NCBI GenBank assembly: GCA_963701295.1
Contig: OY969585.1
Span: forward strand, 2,048,001 to 2,112,000
Reading direction: 5' to 3'
Origin: Ignavibacteriota bacterium
Lineage (GTDB): Bacteria; Bacteroidota; Ignavibacteria; UBA10030
Length of the DNA: 64,000 nt
Shown: positions 4,314-63,072 of the stretch, piece after piece
Position numbering within the stretch: the stretch's first letter is position 1
Layout: each line of letters starts with the position of its first letter
The notes under the pieces: generated by a model
What the model saw: the letters and a program-made list of their open reading frames with translations, nothing else
Databases searched by the model: none
What the model was told of the DNA's origin: nothing
Position numbers and translations under genes: made by a program

Positions 4314-4724
4314 ATGAAATTGGGGTATAAATATTTTATTGCTACTGCCATTCTGTTATTTGCTTTAACGAGAATGGTATTCGCTCAAAACAATCCTACG
4401 ATAACAAAAGTCGAATCTTTTGATGGTTATATTAGGGTGGAATGGACGATTAACTCAGAAGTGGGCGTCGATCATTATGAAGTATGGAGAAGTAGTGGAA
4501 GTTCCGTTCCTCTCTGTGTTGGAGTCGTACCGCATGGAGTTTTTTACTTAGATGATAAAACCGGTTTATATAAGACAGAAGATCAATATTTTAGCTATCA
4601 AGTGAAAGCTGTAGGAGGTCCCAATGGGCCTATCCAGGGACTGAGTGAAATTAAAGGAATACGCTTTAGCACAAGTTCAACCGCGAAGCGTACGTGGGGC
4701 AGTATTAAGGCGATGTTCCGATAA
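4314..4724 (+). CDS. Secreted hypothetical protein, Fn3/Ig-like beta domain, C-terminal TWGSIKAMFR motif
   Basis: Signal peptide ending VFA-Q; W...YEVWRS...Y.Y.VKAV Fn3-like pattern. Confidence 0.7.
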   Translation: MKLGYKYFIATAILLFALTRMVFAQNNPTITKVESFDGYIRVEWTINSEVGVDHYEVWRSSGSSVPLCVGVVPHGVFYLDDKTGLYKTEDQYFSYQVKAVGGPNGPIQGLSEIKGIRFSTSSTAKRTWGSIKAMFR

Positions 4725-4750: not shown

Positions 4751-4777
4751 AAGCGAGCATTATGCGTCGCTTTTTTT
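4751..4777 (+). terminator. Rho-independent terminator
   Basis: AAGCGAGCAT-T-ATGCGTCGCTT hairpin followed by a T-run. Confidence 0.55.
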
Positions 4778-4793
4778 GTTTTTAGGCGTCTTT

Positions 4794-5393
4794 ATGAGAC
4801 CTTTAATTCTTGCATCTCAATCACCTCGTAGAAAAATTCTACTGAAGCAGATTGGATTGAAGTTTCGTGTTATCCCGAGTCATGTTTCGGAAGTGTTATC
4901 TTCAAACCAATCACCCGGTGAAAATGCAAAACGCATTGCAATCGATAAGGCTTCAGAAGTTGCCGTCCGTCTGCACAAAGGGATTGTAATTGGAGCAGAT
5001 ACGATTGTTGTACTCGATCACCATGTCCTCGGCAAACCGTCCTCCCAAGATGATGCGAAGCGGATGTTGAAACTGTTGAGCGGACGTGAGCACTCGGTAT
5101 ACACTGGCTTTGCTTTGATCGATGTGGAATCGAAGAAACACGTAGAAGGATTGGAAGAAACAAAAGTACGATTCCGCATACTGGATGAAAAAGAAATTGT
5201 TTCTTATATCGATTCAGGATCGCCGATGGATAAAGCAGGCTCGTATGGAATTCAAGATGATTTTGGAGCCGTCTTTGTCGAAAAAGTGAATGGATGTTTC
5301 TATAATGTTGTTGGATTTCCTCTTGCTCGTTTTTATTCGACGTTACAGCGGTTTATTGCTTCCTTGGAAGTACAGAGTAAAACGAAAATATAA
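4794..5393 (+). CDS. maf: Maf nucleoside triphosphate pyrophosphatase (YhdE-like)
   Basis: [35 protein letters not shown]. Confidence 0.95.
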
Positions 5394-5395
5394 CG

Positions 5396-5809
5396 ATGAA
5401 ACGAAAGATACGAGTCCTTATTGCTAAAGCCGGATTGGATGGCCATGATCGTGGAGCGAAGGTCGTCGCTGCAGCATTGCGGGATGCCGGATTTGAAGTG
5501 ATTTACTCGGGACTTCGTAAAACAGCGGAAGCGATTGTGGAATCCGCATTACAGGAAGATGTCGATGCAATCGGTGTGAGCCTGCTGAGTGGCACACATA
5601 TGACGATCTTTCCCAAAATATTGCAGGTGATGAAAACGAAAGGGATGGAGGATGTGCTTCTATTCGGCGGTGGAATCATTCCTCAAAAAGACATTCAAGA
5701 ATTGAGGAGTATAGGAGTGGGTGAGCTATTTACACCGGGAACTTCGACCGAAGACATCGTTCGTTATCTGCGTACATGGAACATGGATCACCAACGTTAT
5801 TCATCGTAA
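5396..5809 (+). CDS. Stand-alone cobalamin-binding subunit of methylmalonyl-CoA mutase type
   Basis: [13 protein letters not shown] (DxHxxG), SLLSG, GGGIIP, FTPGT. Confidence 0.93.
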
Positions 5810-5874: not shown

Positions 5875-6078
5875 TTAAGCGATCTTTACAACTTTAACAG
5901 CCTGTAAGCCTTTTGGTCCTGTTTCAACTTCGAATTCTACTTTGTCGCCCTCCTTGAGCGTCCTGTAGCCGTCTCCGCTGATGGACTTGTAATGCACGAA
6001 TACGTCTTCACCAGTTTCTCGTTGGATGAAACCGAATCCTTTTGAATTATTAAACCACTTGACTGTACCCTGTTCCAT
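5875..6078 (-). CDS. Cold-shock protein
   Basis: [15 protein letters not shown] (RNP1), DVFVHY (RNP2), GPKGLQA. Confidence 0.97.
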
Positions 6079-6352: not shown

Positions 6353-8704
6353 TTATTCTCCTTCAGCTAGCCAAATACCGTAATCCTCGGTGTCCGGTTT
6401 ACCCTCTGCTGTTTCCGGTGCGACTTTACGTTCGAGAATGCGGATGCCTTCATCTGAAAAACCGAATATATCATCTAAAGAAAGAATACGATCGAGTGCG
6501 GTCGGTTCAAAAAATTCCCGGAATTTATTTACTGCTTCATGCAGCTTTTCAAGGTAGTAAGCGGTGTTTTCATTAGCTCCTAGAGTGTCCCAATCTTCAA
6601 CTAAACGTGAAAAACGAGCAACATCGACATCTGTCTCAGTTCCAGAGATATAATACGAGAGAGTGGTATTAGCTTTGACAAAGAGACTTGAACGAACCGC
6701 TGCTTCCAATGCTGGAGAAGGAGTGATCCGACCGGCAGCAATTTCTTTCTGGTACGTCTCCGTATCTATACGTAAAAATTCTGTTTTACAGAAGTCCATG
6801 GGAGTCCAGTTGTGTTTGACAATCTGAGTGTAAGCGGTTGCGTATGTATGATGTAATCGTGTTAGATCGTTCATAAGCATGCATTCAATGAATCGTTGGA
6901 TGAACATTCTTAAATAGCGTTCCATCCCGCGTGCTATGAGACTATTACCTTTGATGAGGACATTGTTGCTCTGATCAAGCACCGCATAGTTACTTTTCCT
7001 GTAGCTGAGCATCTTCTTATAATGATGTAATGACACAAGAGTGATACCACTGGGGAGAGTGTTCGAGAGCCGATCTATAAAAATATCTCGGTTCGCCTCA
7101 CCAATAATATTATCCGGCATGAAGAGAAAGAATCCTTGATCGTCAGATTGGATGATGGTAGCATTAAAGAGTTCGATTTGATGTATGATCTCTTTCAGTA
7201 TTTCTCGGCTCGCAGTAAGTACGATTTCGGCTTGATCTGGATCGTTGTAAAGGCCTTTTGCAGAGCCAAGGGAGAGATGAAAAGAATCGAGCAGACGTTT
7301 CAGTGAATTCAACCGAGCAGCTGGATATGTGTCTCGCGATTGGATTGCATGCTTTTGGTCGAGTATTTTTTGCTGCAAAGAAGTGAGACTTATCAAGAGC
7401 GAGAAAAAAACATCGAGATCATCGGTTCTGGGCTTAATGTTTTGACGGAGGAGCATAGAGGGATATAATCCTTCGAGTTCAATATAGAGGACGTCGGAAA
7501 AGACGCCAATGTGATAAATCTCTGTTGGGATATTGATATTGCGAGAACCTTCCATGGGTTTGGGCACCGAATGTTTTTGCCGTACGTATTCTCTCAGTAT
7601 GAGTGATTCGATGCGTGAAGCCGCGCTCGTATGGATCAGCATTCTGAAATTGAATGGACACATCTGAGCAAGATAAAAAAGTGGAGGAAGAAGTAAGGTG
7701 CTGAGCTCATGTACAATAAGGGCATTTTGCAGAGATTGATTTGCCACTTGCTTTGGTGTGCGTTTCCGTTCTTTCATCAACCGATGAGATGGAAGGGCAT
7801 ATCCTATATCAAGAGGAATTCCGAAATGTTTAGCTAATGAAATCAAACTGAATGATTGCTCAACTTTCTTGGTGTTCATTTCTGTTTCTGCAATTGTTAT
7901 AATGTCCACGAGGTGTCTGCCGAAAACATCGTATGAAAACCATTCGCTTTCACCGAATCCTGCAGTGCTAAATCCGCTCAGTGTCCGCATATCGCTGCCG
8001 CTTCTGCCGATAGCAAATGTTATTTGTTGTCTTTCGCAAGCACGACCGAGAGCCGGTAGAATCGTTCCGAATAAATCATATCCCTCAATAATGTCAGGAT
8101 CAATTTCGTTGATGTGCTGGATACATTGTTTCAAGACAACCTGTTCATTTTGTTTTGGGGTTTTCAGGATATATTTGTTTCCATCACTTGTGAGAAGTGT
8201 GATGACGAGTATGTGTTCTTCAAAATTCTTACTGCCTCGTTTCTTTCCTGTTGCAGGCGCATATTGGACATCGATATGAAGACGTACAAGATCCTCAAAT
8301 TCCATTCCTTTGAACAATGTTGTTCCGGATTGCAAAAGAAACTGGCGTACCGGATCGGCACGAACCAGGATTTCTTTTAACTCCTGATACGATGAGATAC
8401 GCGGCGAATGGCTTTTATTGTATTGTCGAAGAATGCAGTGCACTGCTTCCCACATTTCACTCCAGCGGGAGAATGCTGCGATGAACTGATAGAAGTTGTT
8501 CCCGGCAAGCCTCTTCAGCCAGAATTTTTTTTGGAATTCCTTGATAAGCGCTTCGTCCGTTAGAAAAAAGAAGGGGAAGAATTCCACATCTCTGTGGTGA
8601 ATCTTCCCCTCAACTCGCTTGAACAACCTGATCATCTGATCGTTCAACTGTTGGACGGCAACAATGCGCTCTTCAGGATTATGTCCGTAGAGCAATGAGT
8701 CCAT
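6353..8704 (-). CDS. Family-B DNA polymerase homolog with degenerate catalytic motifs (predicted inactive)
   Basis: PolB layout recognisable (DPDIIEG, GRHLVD, LYPS, KSNYA, LIKG), but motif A reads ELEGLYPS, motif B KRLLDSFHLSLG, motif C SDDQG and ExoI DVQ. Confidence 0.8.
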   Translation of the reverse strand: MDSLLYGHNPEERIVAVQQLNDQMIRLFKRVEGKIHHRDVEFFPFFFLTDEALIKEFQKKFWLKRLAGNNFYQFIAAFSRWSEMWEAVHCILRQYNKSHSPRISSYQELKEILVRADPVRQFLLQSGTTLFKGMEFEDLVRLHIDVQYAPATGKKRGSKNFEEHILVITLLTSDGNKYILKTPKQNEQVVLKQCIQHINEIDPDIIEGYDLFGTILPALGRACERQQITFAIGRSGSDMRTLSGFSTAGFGESEWFSYDVFGRHLVDIITIAETEMNTKKVEQSFSLISLAKHFGIPLDIGYALPSHRLMKERKRTPKQVANQSLQNALIVHELSTLLLPPLFYLAQMCPFNFRMLIHTSAASRIESLILREYVRQKHSVPKPMEGSRNINIPTEIYHIGVFSDVLYIELEGLYPSMLLRQNIKPRTDDLDVFFSLLISLTSLQQKILDQKHAIQSRDTYPAARLNSLKRLLDSFHLSLGSAKGLYNDPDQAEIVLTASREILKEIIHQIELFNATIIQSDDQGFFLFMPDNIIGEANRDIFIDRLSNTLPSGITLVSLHHYKKMLSYRKSNYAVLDQSNNVLIKGNSLIARGMERYLRMFIQRFIECMLMNDLTRLHHTYATAYTQIVKHNWTPMDFCKTEFLRIDTETYQKEIAAGRITPSPALEAAVRSSLFVKANTTLSYYISGTETDVDVARFSRLVEDWDTLGANENTAYYLEKLHEAVNKFREFFEPTALDRILSLDDIFGFSDEGIRILERKVAPETAEGKPDTEDYGIWLAEGE

Positions 8705-8707
8705 TCA

Positions 8708-9472
8708 TCATTTCTGCAGTTTGTCCATAGTCATAAACGGTCTCAGCAAATCGATAGGCACGGGGAAAATGGTGGTGGAATTATTCTCCGTAGCAATCTC
8801 GCGAAGTGTTTGCAGATAACGCAGCGTAAGAGCGCTAGGCTGCTCGCTCAACACTTTTGCCGCATCTGAAAGCCGCTGTGATGCCTGGAATTCACCTTCC
8901 GCCGCGATAACTTTGGAGCGGCGTTCGCGCTCGGCTTCTGCCTGTTTTGCCATTGCCCGCTGCATTTCCTGTGGCAGGTCGATCTGTTTCACTTCAACAT
9001 TGGATACCTTCACACCCCACGGTTCTGTGTGGCTGTCAATAATTTGTTGAAGCTTCTGGTTAATCTTGTCGCGCTGTGAAAGAAGATCATCTAATTCGGA
9101 TTGTCCGAGCACGCTTCGCAATGTTGTCTGCGAAAGCTGGGAGGTAGCGAACAAATAATTTTCAACCGATACAACGGCTTTTTCTGGCTGCATTACACGG
9201 AAGTACACAACAGCGTTTACTTTCAACGAGACATTATCCTGTGTAATGATATCCTGCGGTGGAACATCCATAACGACTGTTCGCAGGCTCACCTTCACCA
9301 TTCTATCAATACCGGGCCATAACCAGACAAGTCCGGGCCCCTTGACTCCTAACAACCGTCCTAAGCGGAATATGACACCGCGATCATATTCGCGCAAAAT
9401 TTTAATTGAATTGACTGCGAGAAGAAAAAATGCAAATCCTAAAAGAAATATATATATAAATCCTGGTTCCAT
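8708..9472 (-). CDS. SPFH/band 7 stomatin-like (slipin) protein
   Basis: [42 protein letters not shown]. Confidence 0.96.
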
Positions 9473-9474
9473 AA

Positions 9475-10767
9475 TCACTCCTTTGATATTGTGAATGGTT
9501 CGACGAATAATTTTAATCCGTTGATTTTAACAACTCGTATTCGACTACCTTTTTCAATTGTTCCTGACAGTGATTCAGCATTCCAGAGCTCTCCTTGCAC
9601 ACGAACGACACCTTCTGGTCTCAGCGTTTCGATAACATCTCCACTCTCTCCAGTGAGTCCTTCAGCGCCGGTTGTTGGTTTTCGGCGTTGAGCTTTAATC
9701 CCCAATCCGAGGATAACGACAAAAAAGAATGTGGTGAGAATGACCGATGCAAAGATGACTGACCAGGATATTTCTACAAACTCAAGAACACTTGAAGTGC
9801 GAATAAGCATAATTGATCCCAGAAAAGTTGAGACAGCCCCGCCGATTGCCAGCATGCCATGGCTGATGATTTTTATCTCTAAGAGGAAGAGAATAATGCC
9901 AAAAATGATGAGCGCAAGTCCGGCATAGTTGATTGGCAGAGTATGCATGGAATAGAACGCAAGCACCAGACTGATTACGCCAACGATGCCGGGAAAAATA
10001 GAACCAGGATTGTACAATTCGAGTATCAAACCGATAGTGCCGAGTTGAAAAAGAATGAGGGCGATATTAGGATTGCTTAAGACATCCAATAACTTTTCCG
10101 CCCATCCCATTTCCATTGGTTCAATCCGTGCACCTTTCGTATGTAATGTCACAGTTCTATCTACTGTTTCGACTTGTTTCCCGTCAATCTGAGAGAGCAG
10201 ATCATCGAGATTCTTCGCAATGAGATCGATAACGTTTGTGTCAAGAGCTTCCGTTTCAGTAATAGCTTGACTTCTACGGACTGCATCTTCTGCCCACTTC
10301 ATATTACGGTTTCGTTTTTCGGCGATCGTACGGATAAAAGCGGATGCATCATTAGTGACTTTATCGCTCATCACCGAATCCATTTTTCCTTCCATTTCTA
10401 CGGGATGCGCTGCTCCGATATTTGTTCCGGGTGCCATTGCCGCTATGTGTGCTGCCATAGTGATAAATACGCCGGCAGAACCCGCCTGAGCACCTCCGGG
10501 AGAAACATAGACAACGATAGGAATTTTCGATTCAAGGAATGAACTGACTATCACGCGGGTCGATTTGAGCAAGCCGCCGGGAGTATCCATCTGTATGATG
10601 AGGCATTCGGCATTCTTCTCGCGGGCATTTTCGATACCTCGTTCGATAAATGCCGCTGCTGCCGGATTGATAATACCGTCGATTTTTAGCACAACAACAT
10701 TCTGTGACAGTACAATGCCTGCACATATGATACTGAGAACAACAAGATGAAGAGTACGACGGAGCAT
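9475..10767 (-). CDS. nfeD: NfeD long form: ClpP-class membrane serine protease with OB-fold
   Basis: [24 protein letters not shown] block, GELWNA OB-fold; adjacent to the SPFH gene. Confidence 0.95.
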
Positions 10768-18732: not shown

Positions 18733-18839
18733 ATATGATCACTATAGGTGTAATAGCGTAATGAAATGGAATTTCATAGCTAAAAGAATATTTGGAGATA
18801 AAAGTACAATGGGAAGAGTTTTTGATGAAAATGAAATTG

Positions 18840-18926
18840 CGGAGAGAGTGGGATTCGAACCCACGGTACCCTTACGGATACACTACCTTTCCAGGGTAGC
18901 CAATTCAACCACTCTTGCATCTCTCC
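18840..18926 (-). tRNA. tRNA-Ser(GGA)
   Basis: GGAGAGA acceptor stem, CTACC-CT-GGA-AA-GGTAG anticodon arm, long variable arm, GGTTCGAATCC. Confidence 0.96.
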
Positions 18927-19090
18927 AAAAGTGCTACTTAGAAAATATGATAGGAAAAGATTGATGGAAAAGCAATGAGGAGTATAGGGACAATTCTTTA
19001 CAGATTTTATCTAAATTGGTTTTTTAAAAGCAGTTTGGAAAAATATGCCTGCTTAACGAAATTCTGTGTTTTTTTTTGTATAATAGAGTT

Positions 19091-19150
19091 TGGCGAAAGA
19101 GGAGGATTCTGCGCTAGTGGCGCATGAGCCTTCGGCTCAGAACCCTCAAT
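19091..19150 (-). repeat. Duplicated tRNA-Ser 3' end with a 30-nt double-hairpin insertion in the T-loop
   Basis: Minus strand GAGGGTTC[TGAGCCGAAGGCTCA TGCGCCACTAGCGCA]GAATCCTCCTCTTTCGCCA versus the tRNA's GAGGGTTCGAATCCCTCCCCTTCCG. Confidence 0.8.
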
Positions 19151-19416
19151 GATCATCTGTTATAGAATTAGGAATTTTCATATTCTCATTGAGCCATTTT
19201 CGAACAACACCAGATTTGAGGAATAACTCACGCTTCCTTGCCTTACCTAAGAGTCGGATAGAATTCAGAATGAATAAGGATCCAAGGAATCCCTTTTGAT
19301 GTGAATGGAGTTTTCCCCCAGTTGTGTGCCATAAGACGATCTTCAGGATTTTTTTCGGCTGAGTCAACATAGCGTTTGTGCAGTTTGAAACTCCATAGCA
19401 CATAGATCCAGAACAT
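19146..19416 (-). pseudogene. Small GIY-YIG nuclease, frameshifted near 19247
   Basis: MFWIYVLWS..KRYVDS..RLMAHN.GK..FT..GIPW.L..SE.Y, then ARKRELFLKSG..RKWL in the next frame. Confidence 0.85.
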
Positions 19417-19454
19417 AGTTTGTGCTAGATTGTATTGGTTTTGAGGAGGTGCTG

Positions 19455-19541
19455 CGGAAGGGGAGGGATTCGAACCCTCGATAGCCTTGCGGCTATTCCG
19501 GTTTTCGAGACCGGTCGATTCAACCACTCTCGCACCCTTCC
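19455..19541 (-). tRNA. tRNA-Ser(CGA)
   Basis: GGAAGGG acceptor stem, CCGGT-CT-CGA-AA-ACCGG anticodon arm, long variable arm, GGTTCGAATCC. Confidence 0.96.
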
Positions 19542-54878: not shown

Positions 54879-54951
54879 GCACCCATGGCTCAATTGGTAG
54901 AGCAACTGACTCTTAATCAGTGGGTTCCAGGTTCGAGTCCTGGTGGGTGCA
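54879..54951 (+). tRNA. tRNA-Lys(CTT)
   Basis: GCACCCA/TGGGTGC acceptor stem, ACTGA-CT-CTT-AA-TCAGT anticodon arm, GGTTCGAGTCC. Confidence 0.96.
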
Positions 54952-55118
54952 CGAAGCATCAGACAGTCTTGGAGCTCATAGTCTAATTGTAGTGGTTCCG
55001 GATTCTTCGCGAGAAGCGTATGCGATTGTGGAATGGATATGGGTTTGACGGTCTGGAGGGGAAATTTTTAAGAAGTATACAAAATTTTTTGAAAAAAGAT
55101 TTAGCGTAGGAGAAAAGA

Positions 55119-60273: not shown

Positions 60274-63072
60274 CTAATGCGCTTCTAACCAATTCTTGCC
60301 TACTCCCAGATCAACCTCGACAGGAACCGAGAGGGGAAGGGCTTGCTGCATCTCCCTTTCAACAATTTCTTTCACGATACTCGCTTCTTTTTTTTGTACT
60401 TCAAATACCAATTCATCATGAACTTGAAGAAGCATCGAACTGGCAAGTTTTTGCTTCTTGAGAACTGCATCGATGTGCACCATTGCCAGTTTAATCATAT
60501 CTGCTGCCGTTCCCTGAATCGGCATGTTGATAGCTTGCCGCTCAGCGTTCTGGCGAACGTTCTGGTTGCTACTGCGAATATCTGGAATGTACCGCCGCCT
60601 GCCCAGAAGTGTGCTGACATATCCATCTTTGCGTCCGCTCGCGATTGTATCGTTGATATATTGTTGAACTTTGGGAAAGCGGGCAAAATAACGAGCAATA
60701 ATTTCTTTTCCTTCAGTCTGACTAATCTCTAATCGGTTGGCGAGACCGTAAGCACCGATGCCGTACATAATTCCAAAGTTGACTTCTTTTGCCTTCCGCC
60801 TCATATCTCTCGTTACATCCGTCGCATTGATACCGAATACTTTTGCTGCTGTTGTTGTATGGATATCTTCATGATTCTTGAATGCCTGTGTCAATCCCTC
60901 ATCGCCGGAGATGTGCGCCATCACTCGGAGCTCGATCTGTGAATAATCGGCGGAAAGAATAAGCGATTGAGCGTTGCCGGGAATAAATGCCTTTCGAATT
61001 GATCTGCCAATTTCCGTACGGATTGGAATATTCTGAATATTCGGATCGCTGCTGGATAATCTTCCAGTGGTAGTTACAGTTTGATTGAATGATGTATGCA
61101 CTCGTCCGGTTCTCGGGTTGATAAGTTTCGGAAGTGCATCGATGTAGGTCGATTTCAACTTTGTGGATTGACGGAAGTCGAGGAGCATTTCAATGATCGG
61201 ATGCGAGCCTTTCAACGTTTCAAGAACAGCGACATCTGTGGAAAAACCGGTTTTTGTTTTGCGCACCGATTGCAGCTTGAGTTTATTGAAGAGAATTTCT
61301 GCAAGCTGCTGTGTGGAGTTAATGTTGAAAGATGTACCGGCAGCTTGATGAATTTCTTTCGTGAGCTTTTCGAGCTGCTTCTCAAGTTCTTTTGACATGT
61401 CCGCCAGATGGTTAACGTCGATAGAGACTCCGGCACGCTCCATTCGTGCAAGAACTGAAACTAAAGGGAATTCCACTTCTTCACAGAGCCCGATCATTCC
61501 GAGTTCAAGAAGTTTCTTCTGAAATGTTTCGTACAGGCAGAATGTGATGTCGGAATCTTCACACGAATAATCGGAAAGGGCTTGAAGGGAAACATCACGG
61601 ATGTGCTTTTGCTCTTTACCCGTACCGACCAGTTCGGAGAAAGAGACGGTTTTGTACTTAAGATATTCCGCAGCTACATCATCCATATTATGCTTGCCGT
61701 CCGCACGCACCATGTAGCTGGCAATCATCGAGTCAAACAGAGCGCCTTCAACATTGATGCCATAGTTCGACAACACCAATATGTCATATTTAATATTATG
61801 TCCGATTTTCTTGATGTGAGGATCTTCCAGAATCGGCTTGAGCTTATTACAGATGAATTCCGGCGGCAAGCCGATTGACGAGTTAGGTTCATTATTGGTG
61901 TTTCCAAAGAGACCTCCTTGTCCATGTGTTTTCTTTCCTGTGATCGTAATATAGAAAGCTTCATGCGGCTTGAGGGCAAATGAAATTCCGACGAGTTCGG
62001 CATTCAACGAATCGGTGGAGGTTGTTTCAGTATCGAAGACAAATTCCTGTGCCGATTTCAACTTAGCGCAGAGAGAGGTGAACTCTTTTTCTGTTGTGAT
62101 GAGCTGGTAGATATGTTTGTCCTTGGTGATATCGGAGAGGGGTTCCGGAGGTTTGAATTCAATATCAGGATCAACACTATTTGATGTTTCCTGAGTCTCC
62201 ATCCGGAGCTTGCTCAGGAGTGAGCGGAATTCCAGTGCTTCAAACAATTCCATGAGCTTTGGAGTGTTTCTTTGTTCTGCTTTGAGCGAATGGAAATTGA
62301 TAGTAAGCGGTACGTTGATATCAATCGTAACGAGATGCTTGGACAGCGATGCCAATTCTTTGTTCGACTCCAATTTAGCGCGCAATCCCTTTTGAGGAAT
62401 CTCGTCAAGATGACGATACAGTTCTTCGATACTGCCATACTTCTGGATGAGCGGGATTGCGGTTTTCTCGCCAACCCCCGGCACACCCGGTATATTATCA
62501 GAGGCATCGCCGATTAAACCGAGAATGTCTATGACTTTGTCGGGAGTGACACCGAATTTCTGTCTCACTCCTTCAATGTCTACAATTTCGATGTCGGATC
62601 CTTGCTTGCCAGGTTTGTAAATTTTCGTTGTATCGGAGACAAGCTGCATAAAGTCTTTGTCGGGTGTGACGAGGAACGTGAGAGCATTTTCTCGCTCTGC
62701 CTGTTTTGCAAGTGTGCCGATGATATCGTCGGCCTCAAAACCATCCATCTCAACGACAGGAATATTGTAAGCACGCACGACTTCTTTCAGCACCGGAATT
62801 TGTGTGATCATGTCTTCAGGCATTTTCTGACGTGTGGCTTTGTATTCCTTATACGCCTTGTGCCGGAACGTAGGTTTGCCCGTGTCGAAGACGACGGCAA
62901 TGTGATCGGGAAATTCCTGTGTGAGGATACGGTTTAAAAACGTGACGAATCCGTAGACCGCGCTGGTGTTCTCACCTTTCGAATTCATCAGCGGCTGACG
63001 TATAAATGCGAAATAGGCACGGTATGCCAGTGCCATTGCATCGATGAGATAAACTCGCTCAATTTTTGACAT
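60274..63072 (-). CDS. polA: DNA polymerase I
   Basis: 5'-nuclease (EADD, GDASDNIPGV), 3'-exo DTET, ADYSQIELR, KEVNFGIMYG, QVHDEL all intact. Confidence 0.99.
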   Translation of the reverse strand: MSKIERVYLIDAMALAYRAYFAFIRQPLMNSKGENTSAVYGFVTFLNRILTQEFPDHIAVVFDTGKPTFRHKAYKEYKATRQKMPEDMITQIPVLKEVVRAYNIPVVEMDGFEADDIIGTLAKQAERENALTFLVTPDKDFMQLVSDTTKIYKPGKQGSDIEIVDIEGVRQKFGVTPDKVIDILGLIGDASDNIPGVPGVGEKTAIPLIQKYGSIEELYRHLDEIPQKGLRAKLESNKELASLSKHLVTIDINVPLTINFHSLKAEQRNTPKLMELFEALEFRSLLSKLRMETQETSNSVDPDIEFKPPEPLSDITKDKHIYQLITTEKEFTSLCAKLKSAQEFVFDTETTSTDSLNAELVGISFALKPHEAFYITITGKKTHGQGGLFGNTNNEPNSSIGLPPEFICNKLKPILEDPHIKKIGHNIKYDILVLSNYGINVEGALFDSMIASYMVRADGKHNMDDVAAEYLKYKTVSFSELVGTGKEQKHIRDVSLQALSDYSCEDSDITFCLYETFQKKLLELGMIGLCEEVEFPLVSVLARMERAGVSIDVNHLADMSKELEKQLEKLTKEIHQAAGTSFNINSTQQLAEILFNKLKLQSVRKTKTGFSTDVAVLETLKGSHPIIEMLLDFRQSTKLKSTYIDALPKLINPRTGRVHTSFNQTVTTTGRLSSSDPNIQNIPIRTEIGRSIRKAFIPGNAQSLILSADYSQIELRVMAHISGDEGLTQAFKNHEDIHTTTAAKVFGINATDVTRDMRRKAKEVNFGIMYGIGAYGLANRLEISQTEGKEIIARYFARFPKVQQYINDTIASGRKDGYVSTLLGRRRYIPDIRSSNQNVRQNAERQAINMPIQGTAADMIKLAMVHIDAVLKKQKLASSMLLQVHDELVFEVQKKEASIVKEIVEREMQQALPLSVPVEVDLGVGKNWLEAH

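Follow-up and report, generated by a model that had tools for sequence, protein, structure and literature searches.

A family-B DNA polymerase with two eroded active sites, kept under selection beside nfeD and stomatin-like genes in an Ignavibacteria genome

Why should a bacterium keep an uninterrupted gene for a DNA polymerase in which both catalytic sites have been eroded? The question is raised by an open reading frame (ORF) in a 64,000-nucleotide stretch of DNA from an Ignavibacteriota bacterium (assembly GCA_963701295.1, contig OY969585.1, positions 2,048,001 to 2,112,000), here called the window. The ORF lies at 6353-8704 on the minus strand and encodes 783 amino acids with no internal stop codon; we call its product pseudo-PolB. 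It is a derivative of the bacterial G3 group of family-B polymerases (PolB) that lacks the catalytic features of that group, and it is the syntenic ortholog of G3 PolB. The gene is kept under purifying selection, very probably for a non-catalytic role.

A G3 polymerase without its catalytic residues

The homology of the protein to PolB is far beyond chance. Thermococcales-type PolB structures (PDB sequences) were matched by phmmer with E 4e-20. An AlphaFold2 model based on an 85-row alignment has a pLDDT of 84.4 and a pTM of 0.81, falling below pLDDT 50 at residues 764-783, and Foldseek matched the model end to end to PolB structures (E 1.9e-38, TM up to 0.73). The elements of the family-B fold, i.e. 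an N-terminal domain (NTD), a DnaQ-like exonuclease, palm, fingers and thumb, are distributed across the whole chain. Pfam DNA_pol_B gave no match to pseudo-PolB, and the exonuclease hit was below threshold.

The NTD (residues 1-140; 8285-8704, minus strand, as are all parts of the gene) has the fold of PolB NTDs, with a ferredoxin-like (RRM/ACT-like) subdomain at about residues 43-114. It is followed by an inactivated 3'-5' exonuclease domain (residues 141-338; 7691-8284), where the motifs read DVQ (145-147), YDLFGTI (209-215) and QSLQN (323-327), leaving D145 as the sole surviving carboxylate. Motif A reads ELEGLYPS (409-416; 7457-7480); with the register set against active orthologs, the change of Asp to Glu409 is conservative. 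In motif B, KRLLDSFHL (469-477; 7274-7300), Asn, Tyr and Gly have become Asp473, His476 and Leu477, while Lys469 is retained; the basic residues of the fingers at 444 and 448 are also substituted. Motif C reads DDQG (521-524; 7133-7144), retaining its first Asp (D521) and having Gln523 in place of the second. The thumb (residues 591-733; 6506-6934) keeps R592, R599, K640, K720 and K727. Beyond it lie the sequence LSLDDIFGF (741-749; 6458-6484), and I-W-L (777-779; 6368-6376) within a disordered acidic tail. The missing catalytic residues suggest that both synthesis and proofreading activity have been lost.

A reading of these data from the sequence alone had described an uninterrupted 783-residue PolB ORF, leaving its strand unstated. 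The ORF, phmmer, AlphaFold2 and Foldseek results bear this out, and all of the motifs lie where that reading put them. Its statement that every catalytic motif is eroded is confirmed for both sites, with the nuance that Glu409 is a conservative change and that K469, D521 and D145 are retained.

Homologs were present in 54 of the 61 genomes searched, including all 15 relatives of the same genus, and stay full length down to 55% identity; the source names of the matches point to Ignavibacteria-like Bacteroidota metagenome-assembled genomes. Distant orthologs at the same locus have D-V-E-S-L-Y-P-S, K-I-L-I-N-S-F-Y-G-Y and E-V-D-T-D-G. The Glu preceding motif C in the last of these is a signature of G3 (Kazlauskas 2020, PMC7544198). 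It is found in 63 of 66 polymerase-active orthologs, and is Gln519 in pseudo-PolB. According to Timinskas 2026 (PMC12926913), G3 is the second most abundant group of bacterial PolB and occurs in all Chlorobi; it conserves both active sites as well as a clamp motif, but is experimentally uncharacterised. Pseudo-PolB departs from the conserved polymerase site at E409, D473, H476, L477 and Q523, and from the exonuclease site at all but D145; we note that only 12 of the 66 polymerase-active homologs themselves keep all four exonuclease carboxylates. Intact homologs in titled records of Chlorobiia and Rhodothermia align over their full length at ~30-33% identity, and this homology, together with a tree that included the titled loci, places the descent of the protein in the clade of Chlorobi PolB. 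The fixed locus, the Glu before motif C in the orthologs, the full-length homology to Chlorobiia and Rhodothermia proteins and the occurrence of G3 in all Chlorobi thus identify pseudo-PolB as a G3 derivative. Searches of the open-access literature brought to light neither an inactivated G3 PolB nor a link of one to nfeD and SPFH genes. The six viral homologs are all catalytically intact. At four loci (L222, L235, L244 and L246) the G3 PolB ORFs are 989-1307 amino acids long with long insertions, possibly inteins.

Repeated loss of activity and continued constraint

We sorted 137 distinct near-full-length sequences by their residues at D409, N473 and D523, which gave 66 active rows and 71 dead ones; these three positions are therefore invariant in the active rows by definition. 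Y414, Q465, K469, Y476, G477, T522 and K571 are present in 66/66 active rows and vary or are substituted in the dead ones. The second Asp of motif C coordinates metal (PMC8764526). Its position is occupied in the dead rows by D (24), R (14), Q (12), E (8), N (7), H (3), G (2) and V (1). Dead lineages from more distant genomes carry different substitutions.

Catalytic activity has probably been lost several times independently in related lineages. A tree of five neighbouring genes from 40 loci requires five changes of polymerase state, and a 75-row PolB tree requires four. Approximately unbiased (AU) tests rejected a single clade both for 12 dead loci (p-AU 4.6e-6) and for 11 dead loci within the family (p 2.4e-4). 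Against this history, the tree was already known when the AU test was applied to it, and the PolB trees unite several dead lineages. A first tree grouped all of the dead rows then included, and the 75-row tree unites two groups in family f1. The number of losses is therefore uncertain, and gene transfer or long-branch effects could alter it. All of the 12 polymerase-dead loci are also exonuclease-dead and many exonuclease-dead loci keep the polymerase site, which suggests that the exonuclease was lost first and the polymerase afterwards. The state of the DnaE PHP domain was considered as a cause of exonuclease loss and rejected; the PHP motifs look intact in all 22 genomes of the order for which there was PHP sequence, irrespective of the state of their PolB. 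PHP status would be permissive at most. The metal ligands of the domain look degenerate in four distant genomes with a fully intact G3 PolB (L161-L164); in one such family polB lies beside dnaA-dnaN-recF-like genes (assigned by eye), so that G3 might proofread there.

Of 105 same-genus pairs, 37 had dS<1.5 and were used to calculate dN/dS by the NG86 method; these pairs share ancestry and are not independent. The whole-gene ratio is 0.106-0.194, so far below 1 as to argue against neutral decay. Median values by domain are 0.065 and 0.048 for the NTD, 0.093 for the tail, 0.130 for the thumb, 0.117 and 0.166 for the palm, 0.178 for the exonuclease and 0.226 for the fingers, residues 1-140 together with 339-382 being the most constrained part of the protein. 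SPFH, Csp and the C-terminal half of NfeD served as controls (0.050, 0.061 and 0.135). The relaxation is graded among 17 chosen pairs: nine of the ten measurable fully intact pairs gave 0.02-0.08, with one outlier of 0.27 and an eleventh pair saturated; two exonuclease-dead pairs gave 0.10 and 0.13, and four dead pairs 0.13-0.17 (NTD 0.04-0.085).

The same domains stand out among sites that show at least 90% invariance across 83 active rows, each being scored as kept where at least eight of ten dead representatives retain it. The tail keeps 7/7, the first NTD segment 23/28, the thumb 23/36 and the second NTD segment 7/13, compared with 12/27 in the exonuclease, 4/19 and 5/32 in the palm and 2/21 in the fingers. 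Across the dead lineages the NTD, thumb and tail stay constrained while the palm and fingers relax. The basic residues of the fingers, to which we assign a role with dNTP from archaeal and RB69 PolB, are kept in fractions of 0.14 (444) and 0.00 (448) of 65 core dead rows compared with 1.00 in the active rows; those of the thumb, presumably bound to the duplex, are kept at 0.97-1.00.

The sequence-only reading had suggested selection for a non-catalytic role, and had proposed testing whether the degeneracy is shared and dN/dS lies below 1. The loss proves to be ancient and common to related lineages and the ratios show persisting selection, so that a non-catalytic role is likely.

The operon, the tail and the possible role

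The gene is the third of a series, following nfeD and a stomatin-like gene. The long NfeD/STOPP membrane protease gene (9475-10767, minus strand; PF25145, PF24961, PF01957) has a 4-nt overlap with the start of the stomatin-like SPFH/Band-7 gene (8708-9478, minus strand; PF01145, E 1e-39), whose stop lies 3 nt before the start of polB. A cold-shock protein gene (csp; 5875-6078, minus strand; PF00313) lies downstream, and the convergent maf and B12-binding-domain genes (4776-5809, plus strand) mark the orthologous locus. Of 30 loci, 28 have nfeD and 27 have csp as a neighbour, and at 25 of them SPFH forms an ORF of its own; the gene order is conserved across the bacterial order, with csp absent from several of its loci. 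NfeD/STOPP-stomatin pairs build multimeric assemblies (PMC4208085). By the positive-inside rule, the N-terminus of the SPFH protein points to a cytoplasmic domain. At the locus itself promoter and terminator matches were at the level of shuffled sequence and there was no Rfam match, nor does the region upstream of nfeD share an operator with the PolB2 cassette described below or with recA. An apparent SPFH-PolB fusion (L006) was rejected as an assembly gap (NN). The window also encodes a small protein ending TWGSIKAMFR (4314-4724), with homologs beside maf in several loci, polA (60274-63072), and two tRNA-Ser and one tRNA-Lys (18839-19541; 54879-54952).

The tail differs between loci. An acidic-PF tip ends 25 of 33 titled full-length intact proteins (15/22 from Chlorobiia and 10/11 from Rhodothermia), and resembles the DDDIPF tip of SSB (PMC5872125); in this order the terminal position reads I-W-L instead. 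Intact G3 PolBs at L083-L091 and L100 also carry the acidic-PF tip, which receives no mention in the cited G3 passages. We examined 150 loci, 123 of them usable after removal of duplicates, cut loci and one that was unaligned; most unlinked loci belong to other classes. The I-W motif is present at 57 SPFH-linked loci and missing at three, and it is found at none of the 63 unlinked loci. Polymerase-dead loci are SPFH-linked in 23 of 24 cases. On a tree of 75 of the 123 rows from which the tail was left out, linkage changes four times, and the three independent pairs all point in the same direction, three lineages of the order being without both linkage and Trp; as a control, 0/110 conserved columns of the protein body were lost in two or more of these lineages. 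The tail Trp thus covaries with the nfeD-SPFH operon. W85, which had seemed to covary with tail type, was rejected because it occurs with PF tips in four rows.

The explanation that we tentatively favour is that pseudo-PolB is a non-enzymatic adaptor. Its thumb and NTD would hold DNA of the primer-template kind, and its flexible Trp-bearing tail would dock onto a partner. The most likely partner is the NfeD-stomatin membrane complex specified by the two upstream genes, with which polB is presumably co-transcribed. The tail is found even in active orthologs within the operon, so the adaptor role may have arisen while the enzyme was still active; it could then have made catalysis dispensable, so that first the exonuclease and later the polymerase were lost repeatedly. 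The observations behind this proposal are orthology, synteny, the loss of catalytic residues, purifying selection, domain-specific constraint and the covariation of the Trp with the operon. A fuller history, which we think unlikely as a whole, is that an SSB-mimicking tip was exchanged for a Trp docking peptide, and that a polymerase tethered in this way to NfeD-stomatin then shed both activities on several occasions and now links DNA ends or forks to the membrane.

A number of points weigh against the adaptor. With only three contrasts, a sign test has no chance of being significant (p 0.25), and the I-W motif was chosen after the data had been seen. At two loci, L061 (dead) and L066 (a split gene), the operon is present but the Trp is missing. 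Searches for the gene gave no match in seven of the 61 genomes. Three genomes retain nfeD-SPFH away from polB, and in G048 the pair stands at the same locus although polB is absent (L255, G048:C56:11000-22000, where maf, B12, SPFH and nfeD are present and a PolB2 cassette lies just past maf). Reciprocal change was seen in none of 157 conserved SPFH columns and in one of 185 NfeD columns, this being conservative; since the pair persists without pseudo-PolB and shows no such change, it does not need it. Loss of the KKxY Lys571 in the core clade may weaken the grip on DNA, conservation of the NTD may be due partly to folding, and the ten dead representatives are not all independent.

A somewhat unlikely but possible alternative is a scaffold at the replication or repair fork, like ImuB or the C-terminal module of Pol epsilon. 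LSLDDIFGF would seat it on the beta-clamp, a tail derived from a mimic of the SSB tip would recruit repair proteins, and the operon would be incidental. G3 is described with a clamp motif (PMC12926913) and LSLDDIFGF stands at its position, where two distant homologs have QTSLF and QIGLF; F747 and F749 are invariant in the 65 core dead rows. The SSB-like tips of the Chlorobiia and Rhodothermia proteins point the same way, as do the dnaA-dnaN-recF-like neighbours in the distant family, and in the genome of pseudo-PolB only the SSB and DnaB ORFs end in such a tip. The DnaB helicase (G000:C1:1122525-1124003, L102) ends in an acidic-TPF tip. However, LSLDDIFGF is non-canonical, lacking the Gln and reading xDDLF, and it is partly ordered on the protein itself (pLDDT 73-80). 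A predicted complex of residues 726-783 with DnaN of the same genome, run without controls, scored 0.01 against a mark of 0.32, which counts neither for nor against binding. The earlier idea of LSLDDIFGF as a clamp or partner motif is plausible by position, but is not established. In this order another sequence stands in place of the PF tip, the neighbours of the locus include no replication gene, and a fork scaffold leaves the association of the Trp with nfeD-SPFH unexplained.

It is distinctly unlikely that the NTD is the working part, sensing nucleic acids or bases as an RNA regulator or a reader of deaminated bases, and that the rest is a carried frame. Phage T4 gp43 binds its own mRNA as a regulator and archaeal PolB reads deaminated bases, and the NTD is the most constrained region. 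Yet its RRM/ACT matches are at background Z, the thumb and tail are constrained too, and a fold search returned PolB NTDs with all other matches at background level. An NTD profile found no match in PDB sequences. A stand-alone NTD family was considered and rejected, its 17 short members varying in length and being probably fragments. Phage proteins of 103-114 amino acids that resemble the NTD in an atlas search (0.93) are a lead only.

A paralog has also to be considered. The sole PF00136 match in the genome is a 779-residue PolB with DFVSMYPS and IID, preceded by a 268-residue iRadA-like gene and an 84-residue gene starting MGRT, which matches the order of the described iRadA-PPB2-PolB2 cassette (PMC11791011). 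Neither this gene order nor the second motif C Asp of PolB2/G2 is found in pseudo-PolB; the paralog has both. The cassette (G000:C1:1090370-1094530, L103) adjoins a divergent HTH-S24 repressor, with two similar intergenic palindromes as a candidate operator. The proposal that pseudo-PolB is a partner or inhibitor of the paralog is not supported. The cassette is unlinked, ~0.96 Mb from the locus, and the pairwise similarity of the two polymerases is negligible (26.9 bits). Fourteen of the 15 same-genus genomes have a PF00136 match of the PolB2 kind, and such a match also accompanies fully active G3 orthologs; no PF00136 match was found in genome G016, which has a dead copy. Nor does PolB2 serve as the precedent for a dead accessory polymerase that had been suggested, Sulfolobus Dpo2 being an active extender (PMC8764526) and B2/G2 being treated as active by Kazlauskas 2020 (PMC7544198).

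PolB2, called dead and then proved active (PMC11791011, PMC8764526), does lend something to the idea that pseudo-PolB is a remodelled enzyme using E409, D473, H476 and D521, which we consider very improbable. These residues are found in 57, 56, 59 and 62 of the 65 core rows, and an acid at 409 together with D523 in 20 of the 71 dead rows; one dead row (P0035) keeps both Asp. But PolB2 lost the first Asp, whereas here it is the second, metal-binding Asp that varies among eight residues, at a position that 98% of sites at least equal in conservation. The steric-gate Tyr is kept in only 34/71 rows, the conservation of E409, D473 and H476 is middling (36-45% of sites are as conserved), and other dead lineages have other substitutions. 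Finally, one same-genus copy with a single frameshift near codon 71 (L008), two split polymerase-active copies and the genomes lacking the gene might suggest slow decay of a functionless gene held open by its operon, but this can hardly be correct, and is largely refuted by dN/dS far below 1 out to dS ~1.4, by the presence of the gene in all 15 same-genus genomes and at full length down to 55% identity, and by domain-specific constraint.

Comparison with known systems

At a single locus, orthologs range from intact through exonuclease-dead to fully dead. This natural series suggests that G3 proteins have a second function, a non-catalytic one, which the pattern of constraint narrows to the NTD, the thumb and two tail motifs. 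If the link to stomatin is true, it would connect DNA metabolism with membrane microdomains. Since PolB2, the textbook dead prokaryotic PolB, proved to be active, a bacterial PolB that is truly dead, selected and free-standing would illustrate the exaptation of an enzyme more cleanly.

The closest relative is bacterial G3 PolB itself, of the EpsilonN-like clade (PMC7544198, PMC12926913), which shares the NTD-exonuclease-polymerase architecture. Both of its active sites are described as conserved (PMC12926913), while those of pseudo-PolB have been lost, probably repeatedly, and the tail is different. The PolB2/G2 mutasome polymerase (PMC8764526, PMC11791011) is likewise a family-B protein whose exonuclease is dead and whose motif C is altered, but its second Asp is retained, it is active, and its gene accompanies those of iRadA and PPB2. 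ImuB, an inactive Y-family polymerase, is a catalytically dead accessory subunit (PMC12926913); it belongs to a different family and is co-encoded with ImuA and DnaE2, whereas no active polymerase or RecA-like gene adjoins pseudo-PolB. In poxvirus F12 (PMC4304020) a B-family polymerase has been inactivated and exapted, its new role being implicated in virion morphogenesis; F12 is viral and separately derived, and the corresponding membrane-linked role of pseudo-PolB is a proposal. The C-terminal module of Pol epsilon (PMC2669801) is, as here, a whole exonuclease-polymerase module with both sites inactive, and is proposed to act in assembly of a complex. That module is eukaryotic, essential and fused to an active polymerase, while pseudo-PolB is encoded by a free bacterial gene that has been lost in some lineages.
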